Shown here: in pieces, positions 1 through 12,489 of the stretch
How the letters are laid out: each line of letters starts with the position of its first letter
Position numbering within the stretch: position 1 is the first letter of the stretch
Source: Eledone cirrhosa
Taxonomy: Eukaryota
Direction of reading: 5' to 3'
DNA: 64,000 bases
Assembly (NCBI GenBank): GCA_964016885.1
Contig: OZ024750.1
Location: forward strand, 42,780,001 to 42,844,000
Program-made: the position numbers and the translations under genes
Notes under the pieces: generated by a model
The model's database searches: none
Told to the model about the DNA's origin: nothing
Seen by the model: the letters and a program-made list of their open reading frames with translations, nothing else

Positions 1-3000
1 TCATCATTGTCACTGTCACCACCACAGTTGTCATCATCATTGTCACTGTCACCACCACAGTTGTCATCATCATTGTCACTGTCAGCACCACAGTTGTCAT
101 CATCATTGTCATTGTCACCAACACAGTTGTCACCATCATTGTCATTGTCACCACCACAGTTGTCATCATCATTGTCTTTGTCACCACCACAGTTGTCATC
201 ATCATTGTCATTGTCATCACCACAGTTGTCATCATCATTGTCACTGTCACCACCACAGTTGTCATCATCATTGTCACTGTCACCACCACAGTTGTCATCA
301 TCATTGTCACTGTCACCACCACAGTTGTCATCATCATTGTCACCACCATAGCTGTCATCATCATTGTCTTTGTCACCACCACAGTTGTCAACATTATTGT
401 CATTGTCACCACCACAGTTGTCATCATCATTGTCATTGTCACCACCACAGTTGTCATCATCATTGTCACTGTCACCACCACAGTTGTCATCATCATTGTC
501 AGTGTCATCACCACAGTTGTCATCATCATTGTCACTGTCACCACCACAGTTGTCATCATCATTGTCATTGTCACCACCACAGTTGTCATCATCATTGTCA
601 TTGTCACCACCACAGTTGTCATCGTCATTGTCATTGTCATCACCACAGTTGTCATCATCATTGTCACTGTCACCACCACAGTTGTCATCATCATTTTCAT
701 TGTCACCACCACAGTTGTCATCGTCATTGTCATTGTCATCACCACAGTTTTCATCATCATTGTCACTGTCACCACCACAGTTGTCATCATCATTGTCATT
801 GTCATCACCACAGTTGTCATCATCATTGTCATTGTCACCACCACAGTTGTCATCATCATTGTCATTGTCATCACCACAGTTGTCATCATCATTGTCACTG
901 TCACCACCACAGTTGTCATCATCATTGTCATTGTCATCACCACAGTTGTCATCATCATTGTCATTGTCACCACCACAGTTGTCATCGTCATTGTCATTGT
1001 CACCACCACAGTTGTCATCATCATTGTCATTGTCATCACCACAGTTGTCATCATCATTGTCACTGTCACCAACACAGTTGTCACCATCATTGTCATTGTC
1101 ACCACCACAGCTGTCATCATCATTGTCATTGTCACCACCACAGTTGTCATCGTCATTGTCATTGTCATCACCACAGTTGTCATCATCATTGTCATTGTCA
1201 CCACCACAGTTGTCACCATCATTGTCATTGTCACCACCACAGTTGTCACCACCACAGCTGTCATCATCATTGTCATTGTCACCACCACAGTTGTCATCAT
1301 CATTGTCACTGTCACCACCACAGTTGTCATCATCATTGTTATTGTCACCACCACAGTTGTCATCATCATCTTCACTGTCACTACCACAGTTGTCATCATC
1401 ATTGTCATTGTCACTACCACAGTTGTCATCATCATTGTCATTGTCACCAACACAGTTGTCATCATCATTGTCATTGTCACCACCACAGTTGTCATCATCA
1501 TTGTCATTGTCACCACCACAGTTGTCATCTCTGTTGTCACTGTCACCACCACAGTTGTCATCATCATTGTCATTGTCACCACCACAGTTGTCATCTCTGT
1601 TGTCACTGTCACCACCACAGTTGTCATCATCATTGTCATTGTCACCACCACAGTTGTCATCATCATTGTCATTGTCACTACCACAGTTGTCATCATCATT
1701 GTCATTGTCACCACCACAGTTGTCATCATCGTTGTCATTGTCAACACCACAGTTGTCATCATCATTGTCACTGTCACCAACACAGTTGTCATCATCATTG
1801 TCATTGTCACCACCACAGTTGTCATCTTTGTTGTCACTGTCACCACCACAGTTGTCATCATCATTGTCATTGTCACCACCACAGTTGTCATCATCATTGT
1901 CATTGTCACTACCACAGTTGTCATCATCATCATCATTGTCACCACCACAGTTGTCATCATCATTGTCACTGTAACCACCACAGTTGTCACCATCATTGTC
2001 ACTGTCACCACCACAGTTGTCATCATCATTGTCACTGTCAACACCACAGTTGTCATCATCATTGTCATTGTCATCACCACAGTTGTCATCATCATTGTCA
2101 TTGTCACCACCACAGTTGTCATCATCATTGTCACTGTCACCACCACAGTTGTCATCATCATTGTCATTGTCACCACCACAGTTGTCATCATCATTGTAAT
2201 TGTCACCACCACAGTTGTCATCATCATTGTCACTGTCACCAACACAGTTGTCATCATCATTGTCATTGTCACCACCACAGTTGTCATCATCATTGTCACT
2301 GTCACACCACAGTTGTCATCATCATTGTCATTGTCACCACCACAGTTGTCATCATCATTGTAATTGTCACCACCACAGTTGTCATCATCATTGTCATTGT
2401 CACCACCACAGTTGTCATCATCATTGTCACTGTCACCACCACAGTTGTCATCACTGTTGTCATTGTCATCACCACAGTTGTCATCATCATTGTCACTGTC
2501 ACCACCACAGTTGTCACCACCACAGTTGTCATCATCATCTTCACTGTCACCACCACAGTTGTCATCATCATTGTCCCTGTCACCACCACAGTTGTCATCA
2601 TCATTGTCATTGTCACCACCACAGTTGTCATCATCATTGTCATTGTCACCACCACAGTTGTCATCATCATTGTCACTGTCACCACCACAGTTGTCATCAT
2701 CATTGTCACTGTCACCACCACAGTTGTCATCATCATTGTCATTGTCATCACCACAGTTGTCATCATCATTGTCACTGTCACCACCACAGTTGTCATCTCT
2801 GTTGTCACTGTCACAACCACAGTTGTCATCATCATTGTCACTGTCACCACCACAGTTGTCATCATCATTGTCACTGTCACCACCACAGTTGTCATCACTG
2901 TTGTCATTGTCATCACCACAGTTGTCATCATCATTGTCACTGTCACCACCACAGTTGTCATCATCATTGTCACTGTCACCACCACAGTTGTCATCATCAT

Positions 3001-6000
3001 TGTCACTGTCACCAACACAGTTGTCATCATCATTGTCACTGTCACCACCACAGTTGTCATCACTGTTGTCATTGTCATCACCACAGATGTCATCATCATT
3101 GTCACTGTCACCACCACAGTTGTCATCATCATTGTCACTGTCACCACCACAGTTGTCACCATCATTGTCATTGTCACCACCACAGTTGTCATCATCATTG
3201 TCATTGTCACCACCACAGTTGTCATCATCATTGTCATTGTCATCACCACAGTTGTCATCATCATTGTCATTGTCATCACCACAGTTGTCATCATCATTGT
3301 CATTGTCACCACCACAGTTGTCACCACCACAGTTGTCATCATCATTGTCACTGTCACCACCACAGTTGTCATCATCATTGTCATTGTCACCACCACAGTT
3401 GTCATCGTCATTGTCATTGTCACCACCACAGTTGTCATCATCATTGTCACTGTCACCACCACAGTTGTCATCATCATTGTCATTGTCATCACCACAGTTG
3501 TCATCATCATTGTCATTGTCACCACCACAGTTGTCATCATCATTGTCACTGTCACCACCACAGTTGTCATCATCATTGTCATTGTCACCACCACAGTTGT
3601 CATCATCATTGTCACTGTCACCACCACAGTTGTCATCATCATTGTCACTGTCACCACCACAGTTGTCATCATCATTGTCATTGTCATCACCACAGTTGTC
3701 ATCATCATTGTCATTGTCATCACCACAGTTGTCATCATCATTGTCATTGTCATCACCACAGTTGTCATCATCATTGTCACTGTCATCACCACAGTTGTCA
3801 TCATCATTGTCATTGTCACCACCACAGTTGTCACCGTCATTGTCATTGTCACCACCACAGATGTCACCACCACAGCTGTCATCATCATTGTCATTGTCAC
3901 CACCACAGCTGTCATCATCATTGTCACTGTCACCACCACAGTTGTCATCGTCATTGTCATTGTCATCACCACAGTTGTCATCATCATTGTCATTGTCACC
4001 ACCACAGTTGTCATCGTCATTGTCACTGTCACCACCACAGTTGTCATCATCATTGTAATTGTCACCACCACAGTTGTCATCATCATTGTCACTGTCACCA
4101 CCACAGTTGTCATCATCATTGTCACTGTCACCACCACAGTTGTCATCATCATTGTCATTGTCACCACCACAGTTGTCATCATCATTGTCATTGTCACCAC
4201 CACAGTTGTCATCATCATTATCACTGTCACCACCACAGTTGTCATCATCATTGTCATTGTCACCACCACAGTTGTCATCATCATTGTCATTGTCACCACC
4301 ACAGTTGTCATCATCATTGTCACTGTCACCACCACAGTTGTCATCATCATTGTCATTGTCACCACCACAGTTGTCATCGTCATTGTCATTGTCACCACCA
4401 CAGTTGTCATCATCATCATTGTCATTGTCATCACCACAGTTGTCATCATCATTGTCATTGTCACCACCACAGTTGTCACCATCATTGTCACTGTCACCAC
4501 CACAGTTGTCATCATCATTGTCACTGTCACCACCACAGTTGTCATCATCATTGTCATTGTCACCACCACAGTTGTCATCATCATTGTCACTGTCACCACC
4601 ACAGTTGTCATCATCATTGTCACTGTCACCACCACAGTTGTCATCATCATTGTCATTGTCACCATCACAGTTGTCATCATCATTGTCATTGTCACCACCA
4701 CAGTTGTCATCGTCATTGTCACTGTCACCACCACAGTTGTCATCATCATTTTCACTGTCACCACCACAGTTGTCATCATCATTGTAATTGTCACCACCAC
4801 AGTTGTCATCGTCATTGTCACTGTCACCACCACAGTTGTCATCATCATTGTAATTGTCACCACCACAGTTGTCATCGTCATTGTCACTGTCACCACCACA
4901 GTTGTCATCATCATTGTCATTGTCACCACCACAGTTGTCATCTCTGTTGTCACTGTCACCACCACAGTTGTCATCATCATTGTCACTGTCACCACCACAG
5001 TTGTCATCATCATTGTCATTGTCACCACCACAGTTGTCATCATCATTGTCACTGTCACCACCACAGTTGTCATCATCATTGTCATTGTCACCACCACAGT
5101 TGTCATCATCATTGTAATTGTCACCACCAGAGTTGTCATCATCATTGTCATTGTCACCACCACAGTTGTCATCATCATTGTAATTGTCACCACCACAGTT
5201 GTCATCATCATTGTCACTGTCACCACCACAGTTGTCATCATCATTGTCATTGTCACCAACACAGTTGTCATCATCATTGTCAGTCACCACCACAGTTGTC
5301 ATCATCATTGTCATTGTCACCAACACAGTTGTCATCATCATTGTCAGTCACCACCACAGTTGTCATCATCATTGTCATTGTCACCAACACAGTTGTCATA
5401 ATCATTGTCAGTCACTACCACAGTTGTCATCATCATTGTCATTGTCACCACCACAGTTGTCATCATCATTGTCAGTCACCACCACAGTTGTCATCATCAT
5501 TGTCATTGTCACCACCACAGTTGTCATCATCATTGTCACTGTCACCACCACAGTTGTCATCATCATTGTCACTGTCACCACCACAGTTGTCATCATCATT
5601 GTCACTGTCACCACCACAGTTGTCATCATCATTGTCATTGTCACCACCACAGTTGTCATCATCATTGACAGTGTCACCACCACAGTTGTCATCATCATTG
5701 TCATTGTCACCACCACAGTTGTCATCATCATCTTCACTGTCACCACCACAGTTGTCATCATCATTGTCCCTGTCACCACCACAGTTGTCATCATCATTGT
5801 CATTGTCACCACCACAGTTGTCATCATCATTGTCATTGTCACCACCACAGTTGTCATCATCATTGTCACTGTCACCACCACAGTTGTCATCATCATTGTC
5901 ACTGTCACCACCACAGTTGTCATCATCATTGTCATTGTCATCACCACAGTTGTCATCATCATTGTCACTGTCACCACCACAGTTGTCATCCCTGTTGTCA

Positions 6001-9000
6001 CTGTCACAACCACAGTTGTCATCATCATTGTCACTGTCACCACCACAGTTGTCATCATCATTGTCACTGTCACCACCACAGTTGTCATCACTGTTGTCAT
6101 TGTCATCACCACAGTTGTCATCATCATTGTCACTGTCACCACCACAGTTGTCATCATCATTGTCACTGTCACCACCACAGTTGTCATCATCATTGTCATT
6201 GTCACCACCACAGTTGTCATCATCATTGTCACTGTCACCACCACAGTTGTCATCACTGTTGTCATTGTCATCACCACAGTTGTCATCATCATTGTCACTG
6301 TCACCACCACAGTTGTCATCATCATTGTCACTGTCACCACCACAGTTGTCATCGTCATTGTCATTGTCACCACCACAGTTGTCATCATCATTGTCACTGT
6401 CACCACCACAGTTGTCATCATCATTGTCATTGTCATCACCACAGTTGTCATCATCATTGTCATTGTCACCACCACAGTTGTCATCATCATTGTCACTGTC
6501 ACCACCACAGATGTCATCATCATTGTAATTGTCACCACCACAGTTGTCATCGTCATTGTCACTGTCACCACCACAGTTGTCATCATCATCTTCACTGTCA
6601 CCACCACAGTTGTCATCATCATTGTCATTGTCACCACCACAGTTGTCATCGTCATTGTCATTGTCACCACCACAGTTGTCATCATCATTGTCACTGTCAC
6701 CACCACAGTTGTCATCATCATTGTCACTGTCACCACCAGAGTTGTCATCATCATTGTCATTGTCATCACCACAGTTGTCATCATCATTGTCATTGTCATC
6801 ACCACAGTTGTCATCATCATTGTCATTGTCATCACCACAGTTGTCATCATCATTGTCACTGTCATCACCACAGTTGTCATCATCATTGTCATTGTCACCA
6901 CCACAGTTGTCACCATCATTGTCATTGTCACCACCACAGTTGTCACCACCACAGCTGTCATCATCATTGTCATTGTCACCACCACAGCTGTCATCATCAT
7001 TGTCATTGTCACCACCACAGTTGTCATCGTCATTGTCATTGTCATCACCACAGTTGTCATCATCATTGTCATTGTCACCACCACAGTTGTCATCGTCATT
7101 GTCACTGTCACCACCACAGTTGTCATCATCATTGTAATTGTCACCACCACAGTTGTCATCATCATTGTCACCACCACAGTTGTCATCATCATTGTCATTG
7201 TCATCACCACAGTTGTCATCATCATTGTCATTGTCACCACCACAGTTGTCATCATCATTGTCACTGTCACCACCACAGTTGTCATCATCATTGTCATTGT
7301 CACCACCACAGTTGTCATCATCATTGTCATTGTCACCACCACAGTTGTCATCATCATTGTCACTGTCACCACCACAGTTGTCATCATCATTGTCATTGTC
7401 ACCACCACAGTTGTCATCATCATTGTCATTGTCACCACCACAGTTGTCATCATCATTGTCACTGTCACCACCACAGTTGTCATCATCATTGTCATTGTCA
7501 CCACCACAGTTGTCATCGTCATTGTCATTGTCACCACCACAGTTGTCATCATCATTGTCACTGTCACCACCACAGTTGTCATCATCATTGTCATTGTCAT
7601 CACCACAGTTGTCATCATCATTGTCATTGTCACCACCACAGTTGTCACCATCATTGTCACTGTCACCACCACAGTTGTCATCATCATTGTCACTGTCACC
7701 ACCACAGTTGTCATCATCATTGTCATTGTGACCACCACAGTTGTCATCTCTGTTGTCACTGTCACCACCACAGTTGTCATCATCATTGTCACTGTCACCA
7801 CCACAGTTGTCATCATCATTGTCACTGTCACCACCACAGTTGTCATCATCATTGTCACTGTCACCACCACAGTTGTCATCATCATTGTCACTGTCACCAC
7901 CACAGTTGTCATCATCATTGTAATTGTCACCACCACAGTTGTCATCGTCATTGTCACTGTCACCACCACAGTTGTCATCATCATTGTAATTGTCACCACC
8001 ACAGTTGTCATCGTCATTGTCACTGTCACCACCACAGTTGTCATCATCATTGTCATTGTCACCACCACAGTTGTCATCTCTGTTGTCACTGTCACCACCA
8101 CAGTTGTCATCATCATTGTCACTGTCACCACCACAGTTGTCATCATCATTGTCACTGTCACCACCACAGTTGTCATCATCATTGTCACTGTCACCACCAC
8201 AGTTGTCATCATCATTGTCATTGTCACCACCACAGTTGTCATCGTCATTGTCACTGTCACCACCACAGTTGTCATCATCATTGTCACTGTCACCACCACA
8301 GTTGTCATCATCATTGTCATTGTCACCACCACAGTTGTCATCATCATTGTCACTGTCACCACCACAGTTGTCATCGTCATTGTCACTGTCACCACCACAG
8401 TTGTCATCGTCATTGTCACTGTCACCACCACAGTTGTCATCATCATTGTCACTGTCACCACCACAGTTGTCATCGTCATTGTCACTGTCACCACCACAGT
8501 TGTCATCATCATTGTCACTGTCACCACCACAGTTGTCATCGTCATTGTCACTGTCACCACCACAGTTGTCATCATCATTGTCATTGTCACCAACACAGTT
8601 GTCATCATCATTGTCATTGTCACCACCACAGTTGTCATCATCATTGTCATTGTCATCACCACAGTTGTCATCATCATTGTCACTGTCACCACAACAGTTG
8701 TCATCATCATTGTCATTGTCATCACCACAGTTGTCATCATCATTGTCATTGTCACCACCACAGTTGTCACCATCATTGTCATTGTCACCACCACAGTTGT
8801 CACCATCATTGTCATTGTCACCACCACAGTTGTCACCATCATTGTCATTGTCACCACCACAGTTGTCATCATCATTGTCATTTTCAACACCACAGTTGTC
8901 ATCATCATTGTCATTGTCACCACCACAGTTGTCACCATCATTGTCATTGTCATCACCACAGTTGTCATCATCATTGTCACTGTCACCACCACAGTTGTCA

Positions 9001-9653
9001 TCATCATTGTCACTGTCACCACCACAGATGTCATCATCATTGTCATTGTCACCACCACAGTTGTCATCATCATTGTCATTGTCATCACCACAGTTGTCAT
9101 CATCATTGTCATTGTCACGACCACAGTTATCACCATCATTGTCATTGTCACCACCACAGTTGTCATCGTCATTGTCACCACCACAGTTGTCATCATCATT
9201 GTCATTGTCATCACCACAGTTGTCATCATCATTGTCACTGTCACCACCACAGTTGTCATCATCATTGTCATTGTCATCACCACAGTTGTCATCATCATTG
9301 TCATTGTCACCACCACAGTTGTCACCATCATTGTCATTGTCACCACCACAGCTGTCATCATCATTGTCATTGTCACCACCACAGTTGTCATCGTCATTGT
9401 CATTGTCATCACCACAGTTGTCATCATCATTGTCATTGTCATCACAACAGTTGTCATCATCATTGTCATTGTCATCACCACAGTTGTCATCATCATTGTC
9501 ATTGTCACCACCACAGTTGTCATCATCATTGTCATTGTCATCACCACAGTTGTCATCATCATTGTCATTGTCATCACCACAGTTGTCATCATCATTGTCA
9601 GTCACCAACACAGTTGTCATCATCATTGTCATTGTCACCACCACAGTTGTCAT
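1..9653. repeat. 33-bp tandem satellite array, left part (continues beyond window start)
   Basis: Continuous head-to-tail copies of GTTGTCATCATCATTGTCA(T/C)TGTCACCACCACA with point variants and occasional 15-, 27-, 31- and 36-bp units; interrupted mid-monomer at 9653. Confidence 0.99.
9650..9653 (+). other. Target site duplication TCAT, left copy
   Basis: Left flank ends GTTG-TCAT; right flank begins TCAT-CATCATTGTC; an intact monomer has only one TCAT at this position. Confidence 0.85.
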
Positions 9654-10019
9654 TGTAGCGGTTGTCTCCCTTGTTTTGATTGGGATCTAGACGGGAGGTG
9701 GAACCCTTTCTGCGACTTCCGGTCAGAGCCCTATAAAACTAACAACTTTAGGCTTCCTCTCTCTTTTTGCCTTTTCGGCACCAGGTCAAGAGTCTTCTCA
9801 TTTGGCTCTGCCATTAATTTGGCCAACAGGCGCCTGGCCTTAGCCAGGCGCCCTCTGCCAGCCGCGTTTGCCTGGCAATCAAAACGGTAACTACTAACTT
9901 TGTTTCATTCTAACATCTATCTTTGACATGTCAAGTATTCTATCTACCGTTAATTAAATATTATATACACAAACATTGTCTCGTTTTGTTACATTCATAC
10001 ACCCAGTATCCTCGCTATA
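9654..10019 (+). repeat. 5' LTR (LTR-A), 366 bp
   Basis: Direct repeat of 12121-12485; terminal inverted repeat TGTAGCG...CGCTATA (6/7 match); contains TATAAAA (9732-9738) and ATTAAA (9953-9958). Confidence 0.93.
9715..9738 (+). promoter_or_regulatory. Putative LTR core promoter: ETS-like ACTTCCGG plus TATA box
   Basis: ACTTCCGGTCA (9715-9725) then TATAAAA (9732-9738); the same arrangement occurs in LTR-B (11442-11452, then GATAAAA). Confidence 0.55.
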
Positions 10020-10020
10020 T

Positions 10021-10052
10021 TGGTAACCCTGACGTGATACGAACACGCAGCC
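10021..10052 (+). promoter_or_regulatory. Primer binding site 1, complementary to tRNA-Trp 3' end, extended to about 32 nt
   Basis: TGGTAACCCTGACGTGATACGAACACGCAGCC versus the recalled reverse complement of metazoan tRNA-Trp(CCA), TGGTGACCCCGACGTGATTCGAACACGCAGCC; begins 1 nt after the LTR end. Confidence 0.88.
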
Positions 10053-10089
10053 GTTCATCGCTATAAGGGTCACCCCCCAAAAAAGAAAA

Positions 10090-10358
10090 AAATAGCACAT
10101 CTGGTTTTGTGAGTAACATTACGAATACACAGCAAATTTAGCGACAAACTATGAAAATACTCAAGGACACGCACACACGCACATGTGGAATTCGCACAGA
10201 CATACTTTTTCTCTCACGCATCAATTAACTGTCGCATTTCACCAATATATATATATATGTTTCTCGTTTCTTACAACGAACACTTTCAAAACAAAAAAAA
10301 CATTTCACGATATATATATATGTTTCTCGTTTCTTACAACGAACTCTTTCAAAACACA
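10090..10358 (+). repeat. Internal block X, copy 1 (~270 bp, post-PBS leader)
   Basis: Direct repeat of 11783-12052 at offset 1693; contains a ~66-bp tandem duplication starting at 10235 and 10301 with (AT)n and A-runs. Confidence 0.95.
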
Positions 10359-10932
10359 CAAAAAAAAAAAAGAAATTTGATATTCTTTAAAAAACATTTC
10401 AACAGGAACATTTATTTTCGATGAACCATTGCCTTTTGTTCATCGTTTTCTTCATCGTTCAAGTTTTTTGTTTTTTTCCAAAGTTCACACCTATAATTAT
10501 GCTGATTGAAGCCTTTCTTTTTCATCATTGTTACTTTCAAAATTGCACTATCATTTTCTCGCGCGTTAGAAATATTTTTTTTCAACCTTGTATTGTCACG
10601 TGTAGGCAGCATAAATTCTCGATTCACTGAGATGTCTCTACTCACAGACAGCCGCACGCCAGAGATAGCATTTCTCCCCCAAGGATTCTTCAGCCTTAAG
10701 CTATATTCTTCTATTTGCCGGTTTATAAATTTACAATGTAAATTTACCGTTGATAACCGCGCATTTAGTAAGAATGCTTATTTCTCTGGTCGCTGGCCTC
10801 TGGACCCTTCCAGATCAACGCATTCTCAACATCGACCATCAACTTCGGCTGCTATTTCTAGCACTTTGCGCAACTCATTTTTTCTGAAAAATTTTTTGTC
10901 TACTGTGAATTTAAACACCGAATACGCTCACT

Positions 10933-11024
10933 CAGCAGCAACACCAACAGCAATATAACAGCAACAGCAATATAACAGCAACAGCAATACAGCAGCAACA
11001 GCAACAGCAATACAGCAACTCAGC
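10933..11024. repeat. CAG/CAA-rich simple repeat inside the element
   Basis: Imperfect copies of AACAGCAACAGCAATA(T/C) and CAGCAA. Confidence 0.85.
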
Positions 11025-11315
11025 TTCACCAACAACCAAAGCCAGAGAATTTATTTTTGCAGCACTCTTCCTGTGAGAAAATCCATTTGGATGTTGGAAA
11101 TTTCACGATATACCACAGAAAAAAAAACCACCTGCATTCATTCTCTGGAACACACTTTCTTTCCTGCTGTCATGTGATTGCACACCTGTGAACTATATTT
11201 TGTACATTTGAACTTTTGACTTTTCTTACTTCCATTACTCTGTACCATATTTTTCATGCCTCTTACATGGTCGCCATCTTACTCCATGCATGCTTCTTTC
11301 GATTTTTTATGTTTT

Positions 11316-11335
11316 AAAAATCTGGCGGGGGATAC
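11316..11335 (+). promoter_or_regulatory. PPT-like tract 1, preceding the internal LTR-B
   Basis: AAAAATCTGGCGGGGGATAC directly followed by TGTAG; parallels AAAATTCTGGCGGGAGGTTA|TGTAG before the 3' LTR, and both are preceded by TTTCGATTTTT. Confidence 0.8.
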
Positions 11336-11763
11336 TGTAGTAAGAGTTGCCTCCCCTGCCACGACAATCGAATCGCTGTTCTCTAGACAGGAAGTAGGTG
11401 GAGTTGCTTCCCTTTGGGATTGACCAAACTCCCTAGTGGTCACTTCCGGTCAACAGAGATAAAAGGAGCGATTAACCGCGAAATCTCTCTCTCGCCTCCT
11501 GATTCCTGAAGTGGTAACATCTTCGACCATAGCTGGTGATTCTTTCTGGACGACCCTTTCGTTACCAGCACAATCCAGCTCACCAGCCTGAGATGAGAGC
11601 GCCAAGACATTTTCTACCAACTTCACAATGGTATTATTGCCATCGGGTAACAACCCTTTACCTTATACACCTTTGACTTCTATGAAGTAAAACTTTATCA
11701 CACACACCAGTACTCTTTGTCTTTTATATTATGTTGCATGTGCACCGATATCTATTTCCTAAA
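11336..11763 (+). repeat. Internal divergent LTR (LTR-B), ~428 bp
   Basis: Starts TGTAG right after a PPT-like tract and ends (CCTAAA, degenerate) just before a perfect PBS. Shares colinear motifs with LTR-A: GTTG.CTCCC.TG, TCTAGAC, AGGTGGA, ACTTCCGGTCA followed by a TATA-like ATAAAA. Right boundary approximate. Confidence 0.8.
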
Positions 11764-11764
11764 G

Positions 11765-11782
11765 TGGTGACCCCGACGTGAT
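11765..11782 (+). promoter_or_regulatory. Primer binding site 2, perfect 18-nt tRNA-Trp PBS
   Basis: TGGTGACCCCGACGTGAT, the canonical complement of the 18 3'-terminal nucleotides of tRNA-Trp including CCA. Confidence 0.93.
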
Positions 11783-12052
11783 AAATGGCACATCTGGTTT
11801 TGTGAGTAACATTACGAATACACAGCAAATTTAGCGACAAACTATGAAAATACTCAAGGACACGCACACACGCACATGTGGAATTCGCACAGACATACTT
11901 TTTCTCTCACGCATCAATTAACTGTCGCATTTCACCAATATATATATATATGTTTCTCGTTTCTTACAACGAACACTTTCAAAACAAAAAAAAACATTTC
12001 ACGATATATATATATGTTTCTCGTTTCTTACAACGAACTCTTTCAAAACACA
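11783..12052 (+). repeat. Internal block X, copy 2
   Basis: Matches 10090-10358 except for one substitution near the start (AAATAG/AAATGG) and an A8 vs A9 run. Confidence 0.95.
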
Positions 12053-12100
12053 ACATTCTCGCCAACTTGCTACATATTTTCATTTCGATTTTTATACACT

Positions 12101-12120
12101 AAAATTCTGGCGGGAGGTTA
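12101..12120 (+). promoter_or_regulatory. PPT-like tract 2, preceding the 3' LTR
   Basis: AAAATTCTGGCGGGAGGTTA abutting TGTAGCG. Confidence 0.82.
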
Positions 12121-12485
12121 TGTAGCGGTTGTCTCCCTTGTTTTGATTGGGATCTAGACGGGAGGTGGAACCCTTTCTGCGAATTCCGGTCAGAGCCCTA
12201 TAAAACTAACAACTTTAAGCTTCCTCTCTCTTTTTGCCTTTTCGGCACCAGGTCAAGAGTCTTCTCATTTGGCTCTGCCATTAATTTGGCAGAGGGCGCC
12301 TGGCCTTAGCCAGGCGCCCTCTGCCAGCCGCGTTTGCCTGGCAAACAAAACGGTAACTACTAACTTTGTTTCATTCTAACATCTATCTTTGACATGTCAA
12401 GTATTCTATCTACCGTTAATTAAGTATTATATACACAAACATTGTCTCGTTTTGTTACATTCATACACCCAGTATCCTCGCTATA
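12121..12485 (+). repeat. 3' LTR (LTR-A), 365 bp
   Basis: By manual alignment differs from the 5' LTR at 4 single substitutions plus one clustered change (CAACA vs AGAG). Confidence 0.93.
12287..12326. other. Perfect 18-bp GC-rich inverted repeat with 4-nt loop in the 3' LTR
   Basis: TGGCAGAGGGCGCCTGGC-CTTA-GCCAGGCGCCCTCTGCCA; only the inner 10 bp pair perfectly in the 5' LTR (9820-9860). Confidence 0.92.
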
Positions 12486-12489
12486 TCAT
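12486..12489 (+). other. Target site duplication TCAT, right copy
   Basis: Matches 9650-9653. Offsets to the empty paralogous site at 15881 (6231 and 3395) differ by 2836 = 2832 + 4. Confidence 0.85.

Follow-up and report, generated by a model that had tools for sequence, protein, structure and literature searches.

A primer-binding site that runs past tRNA position 58: probable read-through copies of tRNA-Trp behind LTR ends

The stretch of DNA analysed here, 64,000 nucleotides long and referred to as the window, contains an LTR retrotransposon whose primer-binding site (PBS) continues beyond the usual 18-nt stop and copies tRNA-Trp back to residue G45. The extended site is common to a whole family of elements, and about 50 other independent tRNA-Trp overcopies, each bearing the complement of the CCA end, lie behind LTR ends in the same genome. 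We hold with considerable confidence that such sites arise by read-through, plus-strand synthesis having passed A58 and copied the mature primer tRNA into the element. The base facing A58 in the window is an A, and we lean, with distinctly less assurance, towards an error of reverse transcriptase (RT) opposite A58 as its cause; the A goes back to a single founder event (n = 1).

The extended site and the host tRNA-Trp genes

Site positions (n) are counted from the tRNA's 3′ terminus, n being 77 minus the tRNA position. The genome searched was a 3.0 Gb assembly, with host tRNA-Trp genes called by ARAGORN. PBS1 (window positions 10021-10038, forward strand, as for all features of the element below) begins one base past the LTR end and corresponds to n1-18, the complement of the tRNA-Trp 3′ end including CCA, with mismatches at n5 and n10. 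It is followed by n19 (10039), which faces tRNA A58 and is A where T is expected, and by 13 nt (10040-10052, n20-32) that match the reverse complement of the host tRNA-Trp(CCA) genes from G57 back to G45, covering the T-loop, the 5′ strand of the T-stem and the variable loop. These 13 bases are an exact match to the G57 isodecoder; over the 32 nt, the site departs from host tRNA-Trp only at n5, n10 and n19. Given the element's base composition, 13 matches in a set position would arise by chance with a probability of 5e-9, which excludes coincidence. The first-pass annotation of this DNA had described complementarity running about 14 nt past the 18-nt stop, through the T-loop and T-stem, and had advised aligning the site to host tRNA-Trp genes. 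The alignment bore this out, with the mismatched n19 and 13 matching bases carrying the site past 18 nt and through n32. The mismatches at positions 5 and 10 are present as described; the annotation took them for drift that hinted at coincidence, a view that did not hold up, as they are instead fixed traits of the family that have repeatedly been restored from the tRNA (see below).

That T is the expected base at n19 was confirmed by 52 distinct host tRNA-Trp gene copies, in which position 58 is A in 49, T in two and G in one (the gene census being incomplete, with 40 of 154 candidates scored). Both T58 copies (L190 and L191) were called tRNA-Trp by ARAGORN. A host gene with T at 58 had been named in the annotation as evidence against its reading. 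Taken literally, two of the 52 copies are such genes, and neither is an exact template for n20-32, from which each differs at one base (L190 at n28, L191 at n20). Tandem arrays of tRNA-Trp genes occur at G000:C4:277.40-277.45 Mb and C4:353.39-353.49 Mb; they comprise G57 and A57 isodecoders and decayed copies, two of which have T58.

The element carrying the site

The window consists of a 33-bp satellite with a single LTR element inserted at 9654-12485 (2832 bp; typical family copies measure about 2.1 kb). The left 4-bp target-site duplication (TSD) lies within the satellite at 9650-9653, and the same four bases recur at 12486-12489. The 5′ LTR (9654-10019), of the non-autonomous family E1, is 97.8% identical to the 3′ LTR (12121-12485), which follows a polypurine tract (PPT, 12108-12120) and directly precedes the right TSD. 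Behind the tRNA copy come a 5-nt linker (10053-10057) that is not in common with the present LTR end, a duplicate of the last 8 bases of the LTR with a 2-nt spacer (10058-10067; 10 of 10 bases in the older subfamily, L001 and L065) and a decayed second PBS (10068-10077), the first 11 nt of which are intact in the older subfamily.

The segment 10696-11783 is 93.6-99% identical to the 3′ untranslated region (UTR), LTR and PBS of a 6-kb autonomous CsRn1-type family (L383-L385), the likely helper. Within it, 10696-11335 corresponds to the 3′ UTR and PPT, at the same level of identity; 11336-11763 (LTR_B) is the LTR of the helper family and is missing from the typical copies L003 and L005. Next comes PBS2 (11765-11782), a perfect 18-mer ending at exactly the normal stop, as the annotation had noted, and joined to a repeated E1 leader (11783-12053). 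Since 11218-12049 is missing from typical family copies, the window copy is a chimera and PBS2 is the helper's. The make-up of this chimera (10696-12053), in which the helper's 3′ UTR, PPT, LTR and 18-nt PBS are joined to a second leader of the element's own, points to co-packaging with the helper.

In the helper family, gag contains a CHCC motif, pol has a GPY tail and the TSDs are 4 bp long. The CHCC motif (C-x2-H-x9-C-x3-C) was read by eye in ORFs of L383 and L152, as was the GPY motif in the pol of L383; the ORFs of L152 follow the order PR-RT-RH-IN in Pfam matches, the one to integrase scoring below its cut-off. The window element has no gag, a Pfam scan found no protein-coding match in it, the ORF at 10506-10958 included, and ARAGORN found no tRNA in the 64-kb window. 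The available part of PMC3630058 lists a tRNA-Trp PBS, a CHCC gag motif, a GPY integrase tail and a 4-bp TSD for the CsRn1 lineage. All four are found in the helper family, and the tRNA-Trp PBS and 4-bp TSD in the window element, which differs from the lineage in being protein-less; an over-long PBS is not mentioned in that part of the source. Judged from its sequence features, the window element is classed as a non-autonomous CsRn1-type Gypsy LTR element. It is non-coding, with two LTRs, a PBS and a PPT, as in TRIMs; at 2832 bp, or about 2.1 kb for typical copies, it exceeds the length of <1000 bp that the available text of PMC10886601 sets for that class.

One capture inherited by the family

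All 30 family loci carry the extension with A at n19. Genome-wide, 477 sites fit the exact family pattern, with n19 being A in 471, G in six, and T or C in none, and A is found in both the old and the young subfamily, the LTRs of which are about 70-81% alike. The extension was captured once and then inherited. A separate event in each copy was rejected as the source of the A, which is common to 471 of the 477 sites; the extension is not peculiar to the window copy.

In 71 of the 477 sites the PBS matches the tRNA perfectly, and these copies are scattered among two-mismatch copies in a 68-row LTR tree (many branches of which are weakly supported). Scattered restoration of a perfect PBS indicates that PBS1 is the working primer site and that its first 18 nt are re-templated from the tRNA, and the persistence of A at n19 indicates that the normal stop works and that the extension is carried along in the RNA. 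No T at n19 was found among the 71 tRNA-perfect sites. Isodecoder-type bases at n20 or n30 are present in 5 of 72 tRNA-perfect sites versus 1 of 407 others (p = 4e-4), a difference confounded by subfamily age and by a tandem array: the four n30 cases all belong to the older subfamily, and 13 of the 71 perfect sites form one array. Frequent rewriting could not be shown for this family, T19 being absent and the n20/n30 excess confounded; rewriting past n18 is rare or invisible here. The tandem array (G000:C14:21370160-21464553) holds thirteen family sites, mostly 4-6 kb apart.

Parallel captures in the same genome

Counting by hand gave 51 distinct capture junctions of at least 30 nt, with at least 15 types of LTR end; captures of equal length that belong to a single LTR family (L035, L038, L060) could be of common descent. 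Every capture has the CCA complement, placed directly after an LTR-like end; none of the 52 tRNA-Trp gene copies has it. Thirty tRNA-like loci comprised 13 tRNA genes, four window-family copies and 13 unrelated LTR ends, behind each of which lie 32-49 nt of tRNA-Trp complement with CCA. Perfect 18-mers number 410 genome-wide, and ten of the first 30 were extended: four belong to the window family, four to a pol-bearing family and two are one-offs. The pol-bearing family has inherited a 32-mer with T at n19, one of its four copies having an extra base. No pol-like match was found upstream of any capture, over up to 1450 bases. Downstream, the sequence jumps into pol, is inverted or is host DNA, a disorder of the kind that aberrant second-strand transfer would leave.

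Several observations concern individual groups of captures. L085, L086, L210 and others contain tandem repeats of a 46-47-nt unit made up of PBS, extension and LTR-end duplicate. In L264-L275, all of one LTR family, the sequence after the PBS differs at all 12 sites bar one duplicated pair and n19 is mostly wrong in the captures; the RT of this family is possibly a particularly leaky one. A scan of metagenome contigs gave six hits, one tRNA gene and five captures of 37-50 nt behind putative LTR-like ends; L337 has A at n40, and L340 has C at n19. L336 and L340 resemble each other in their LTR-like ends and share a 50-nt capture, with T at n19 in L336 and C in L340; they likely represent another propagating lineage in another organism.

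Errors and end points of the overruns

Errors were counted in an unbiased set, obtained with a 37-nt query in which any three mismatches were allowed and n19 was treated like other positions. The 52 matches included 42 non-gene sites, made up of 35 events plus six members of one family. Read-through past A58 is usually error-free, n19 being the correct T in 30 of the 35 events. The remaining five have G (two), A (two) or C (one). Transversions are over-represented at n19 (4/35, versus 7/980 at n4-32; p = 3e-4), as are mismatches of all kinds (5/35 versus 28/910; p = 0.006), and T positions other than n19 were changed in 0 of 105 cases. Both T-to-A events (L169 and L171) are also consistent with the T58 gene copy L191 as template; when they are left out, p for the transversion excess becomes about 0.03, worked out by hand. 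G at n19 was seen in four events overall versus none of the 52 gene copies.

A second position that is often wrong is n40, corresponding to G37: among captures of at least 47 nt it is wrong in 4 of 10, compared with 2 errors in 130 cells at neighbouring positions (counts entered by hand; p = 2e-4), and L059 skips n38-42 altogether. The end points of 36 events in the unbiased set fall into two groups, 24 at n37-42 (mode n39; the lower edge of this peak is set by the 37-nt query) and eight at n48-52, with none at n43-47 and none beyond n52. G26 of the tRNA, which is methylated in animals, is n51. The available part of PMC7200024 (Table 1) places m1G37 on human and bovine tRNA-Trp, and m1A58 is present on primer tRNAs including tRNA-Trp (PMC13191261, section 10). 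Overruns end, or carry errors, at tRNA positions that are likely methylated in the host, to judge from human and bovine tRNA. The end-point clusters could alternatively stem from tRNA halves cleaved at the anticodon or from an anticodon hairpin of the cDNA. Two other changes recur: A at n30 (tRNA U47) is found in many captures, although just 4 of the 52 gene copies now present have it, and captures repeatedly show C-to-T at n28 outside CpG. They may reflect a lost isodecoder or another RT signature.

Junctions and a route of rescue

In five captures (L036, L150, L184, L162 and L071) the sequence jumps back into the element's own LTR end, with 2-4 nt of microhomology to the end of the tRNA copy. 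Jump-back copies share 8-24 nt with the LTR end, and at least 9 nt were shared in only 1 of 72 control cross-pairs. The overlap was present in five of nine one-off captures picked by eye and absent from the other four. Most captures outside the jump-back cases run into deletions, inversions or host DNA. Snap-back junctions were found at the anticodon stem (L169) and into the own LTR or PBS (L032 and L181); they require a single-stranded DNA copy of the tRNA. In L162 and L210 the 4-bp TSD adjoins the duplicated LTR end, which suggests that integrase likely used that end. L210 carries the unit of PBS, extension and LTR-end duplicate on its 3′ LTR as well, followed by the TSD.

The window family combines the jump-back anatomy with a second PBS, by which the end would become transferable again. 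No jump-back microhomology was found in the window family today, a 5-nt linker being present; the LTR bases concerned are hypervariable. We infer the following course. In the founder, plus-strand synthesis would have copied 32 nt of the mature tRNA, leaving an overlong 3′ end without a pairing partner on the minus strand. Synthesis, primed anew close to the LTR end, would have copied the LTR end and the PBS again and so gained a usable end for second-strand transfer, giving the order LTR, PBS with 14 extra nt, linker, LTR-end duplicate and second PBS. Later copies would be primed at PBS1 and stop normally at 18 nt, so that the extension rides along in the RNA.

The annotation's proposal that RT had read through the primer tRNA is well supported by the roughly 50 independent CCA-bearing captures, by the variety of their end points, by the snap-back and jump-back junctions and by the excess of errors at A58 and G37. 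Its further claim, that the A is a product of misincorporation during read-through, is likely but less secure: errors at n19 are indeed enriched, but the A represents one founder event and 30 of 35 captures have T.

A second family and possible reuse of long sites

Three lineages in the genome have spread with a long site. One of these, referred to as the second family, has 51 junction matches, and 29 of 30 loci contain an 11-nt PBS followed by a decayed copy out to n40, the decay of the 40-nt site being at n12-30. A tRNA-matching 40-mer is present at seven sites genome-wide, and 18-nt repair only is seen at two. In a 32-row LTR tree (built without the long branches L323, L328, L330 and L334, the identical L318, and L343), five of the seven tRNA-matching sites are basal, whereas L129 and L138 nest among decayed copies. 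Flank identity to the nearest decayed relatives is 98.5% for L129, which lies inside a 96/98 clade, and 96.5% for L138. An AU test gave p = 1e-6, a result that is partly trivial since the basal pristine copies are paraphyletic; the argument for rewriting therefore rests on the nesting of L129 and L138. On the simplest reading, the tRNA appears to have served twice as template for rewriting the decayed 40-nt site past A58, with T at n19 both times. L342, a recombinant in which one clade's LTR is combined with a site of the decayed type, shows that recombination occurs, so recombination with an older copy could mimic rewriting.

Alternative explanations

An origin from a fragment of a tRNA gene or a tRNA-derived SINE, or from chance, deserves next to no credence and was rejected. 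Gene arrays with decayed copies do exist, but captures have the CCA complement that gene copies lack (0/52), and their first base corresponds precisely to the tRNA 3′ end and lies one or two bases past the LTR end; the chance value was given above. Three competing accounts concern the A at n19. It would be rather improbable, in our estimate, for read-through to be real and the A to be a later point mutation of the founder lineage. This lineage is old, as the divergence of the subfamily LTRs attests, it also fixed the changes at n5 and n10, and the site of a sister family drifted from T to A at neighbouring positions. However, no change has been fixed in n20-32, other T positions are unchanged in captures, n19 is specifically enriched in errors and both subfamilies have the A. 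Even less probable is faithful copying of a U58 tRNA-Trp that lacked m1A58 and therefore let RT pass. An A58U primer impairs the stop in HIV-1 (PMC13191261, section 10), two of the 52 gene copies have T58, and six captures with A19 and T20 match L191. Yet both T58 copies differ from the window in n20-32, and G at n19 (four events) has no gene template. Moreover, captures with A19 and T20 are confined to one LTR family (6/7 versus 0/11 elsewhere, p = 4e-4), a pattern more in keeping with an effect of the enzyme or family than with a common tRNA pool. We regard as very improbable that the A is the element's own post-PBS base, brought in by template switching or heteroduplex repair with the tRNA resuming at n20. 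The helper family does have A after its PBS, and L184 has G19 like its plain relatives; but L036, L140, L135, L165, L166, L172, L147 and L173 have T where their plain relatives have C, G or A, all four bases occur at n19 within one LTR family, and two in-register switches would be needed. An RT error opposite A58 is the account that we prefer.

A different matter is whether selection later retained the extension as a site for extended primer annealing or for over-extension, which is compatible with an origin by read-through and which we consider somewhat unlikely. The first-pass annotation had offered an extended annealing site as the other explanation; this failed as an origin of the sequence and survives as a possible later use. 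Among 27 window-family copies chosen on n1-12 only (three of the 30 rows, the rearranged copies L277, L297 and L292, were left out), columns with shared variants number 0 of 13 at n20-32 versus 103 of 475 in the flanks. This greater quiet, equalled by 13 of 451 flank windows, speaks for selection but is not significant (p = 0.08). The spread of three lineages with a long site is a further point in favour, as is the second family, where long rewrites (two nested copies) are as frequent as 18-nt repairs (two copies). Against selection, the helper family works with a plain 18-mer, the second family's site has decayed, T19 is absent from the tRNA-perfect sites of the window family, and an RNA hairpin over PBS1 was not found beyond what shuffled sequences gave (z -1.64). 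The extension of the window family is best described as an inherited passenger, present-day function being at most suggested.

Relation to known systems

Retroviral plus-strand strong stop at m1A58, with minor read-through products, is described in the available parts of PMC13191261 (section 10) and PMC8599865. The primer geometry is the same here, with the stop one base before A58, and the retroviral read-through products likewise end at the next bulky modification, position 37. According to the same parts, these products come from in vitro work or from TRMT6-mutant cells, and the long ones, it is stated, neither complete transfer nor integrate; in contrast, about 50 are integrated in the germ line here and three founded lineages. 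These excerpts also describe a primer over-extension sequence in lentiviruses and spumaviruses, which resembles the present sites in placing tRNA-complementary bases directly behind the PBS and which allows transfer of a plus strand that has been over-extended. This sequence, a few bases long, goes no further than about position 54-55, whereas the window extension passes these T-loop stops and runs to G45, and others to G37 or beyond; the 14-32 extra bases here are themselves captured tRNA copies, in Gypsy elements.

Inheritance of PBS sequence from primer tRNA in endogenous retroviruses (ERVs), as presented in the available part of PMC7472051, parallels the window family: in both, the most frequent PBS carries two mismatches, and perfect ones turn up again on scattered branches. 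Ty3/Gypsy elements, and likewise Ty1, are said in the parts available of PMC7472051 and PMC5371799 not to inherit tRNA sequence; the CsRn1-type Gypsy elements here do inherit it, beyond 18 nt. The m1A signature of tRNA-seq, arrest plus context-dependent misincorporation (PMC4787781, available part), is matched in captures by a site-specific excess of mismatches and stops; there it is a laboratory product, and here the likely equivalent would have been produced in vivo by the RTs of the elements and become fixed in DNA. Helenus TRIMs, as described in the available text of PMC10886601, are also non-autonomous LTR elements with tRNA-derived sequence and, in animals, a 4-bp TSD. Their tRNA sequence is promoter-like, lies inside the LTR and is unrelated to the PBS, whereas the tRNA copy here is antisense, CCA-bearing and continuous with the PBS. 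No precedent was found in the available parts of PMC3832253, PMC12471100 and PMC10886601, nor any report of integrated long primer overcopies in a literature search that was thin on older and subscription papers.

The m1A58 stop, minor read-through products, the short over-extension sequence, PBS reversion in ERVs and the m1A misincorporation signature are known already. In the retroviral literature consulted, long read-through past m1A58 counts as a dead end, and Gypsy elements are taken not to inherit tRNA sequence. This genome presents integrated overruns in numbers, a rescue route and lineages founded on overruns. The places where RT halts on its primer in vivo and the bases that it inserts, hitherto addressed in vitro or with mutant cells, become countable on any assembly, and overcopies offer a means of inferring tRNA modifications and past isodecoders from DNA alone. 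If the reading of errors and end points is true, the genome would hold a fossil record of tRNA modification. A broader picture, which we put forward tentatively and think may well prove wrong, is that the RTs of CsRn1-type Gypsy elements pass A58 at a rate that matters, that their overruns are rescued by jump-back to the LTR end, that some overruns become landing pads of 30-50 nt, kept and periodically rewritten from the tRNA, and that animal genomes therefore hold a datable in vivo map of tRNA-Trp modification (A58, G37, G26) with errors specific to RT families.

Other features of the element and the window

L372 is a helper/E1 chimera of the reciprocal kind to that in the window. L359, L374 and L377 share one junction, at which the helper LTR and PBS stand head-to-head with the reverse complement of the window family's extended PBS and LTR. 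The decayed second site of the window family is complementary to PBS n2-8. The segment 10000-10012 (LTR bases -20 to -8 before the PBS) is hypervariable among near-identical copies, with 4.2 parsimony changes per column versus about 1 in the flanks, and may owe this to error-prone early minus-strand synthesis. The 33-bp satellite, which has sub-repeats of 15 and 18 nt, occupies 1-9653 and 12486-64000 and gives rise to long spurious ORFs.
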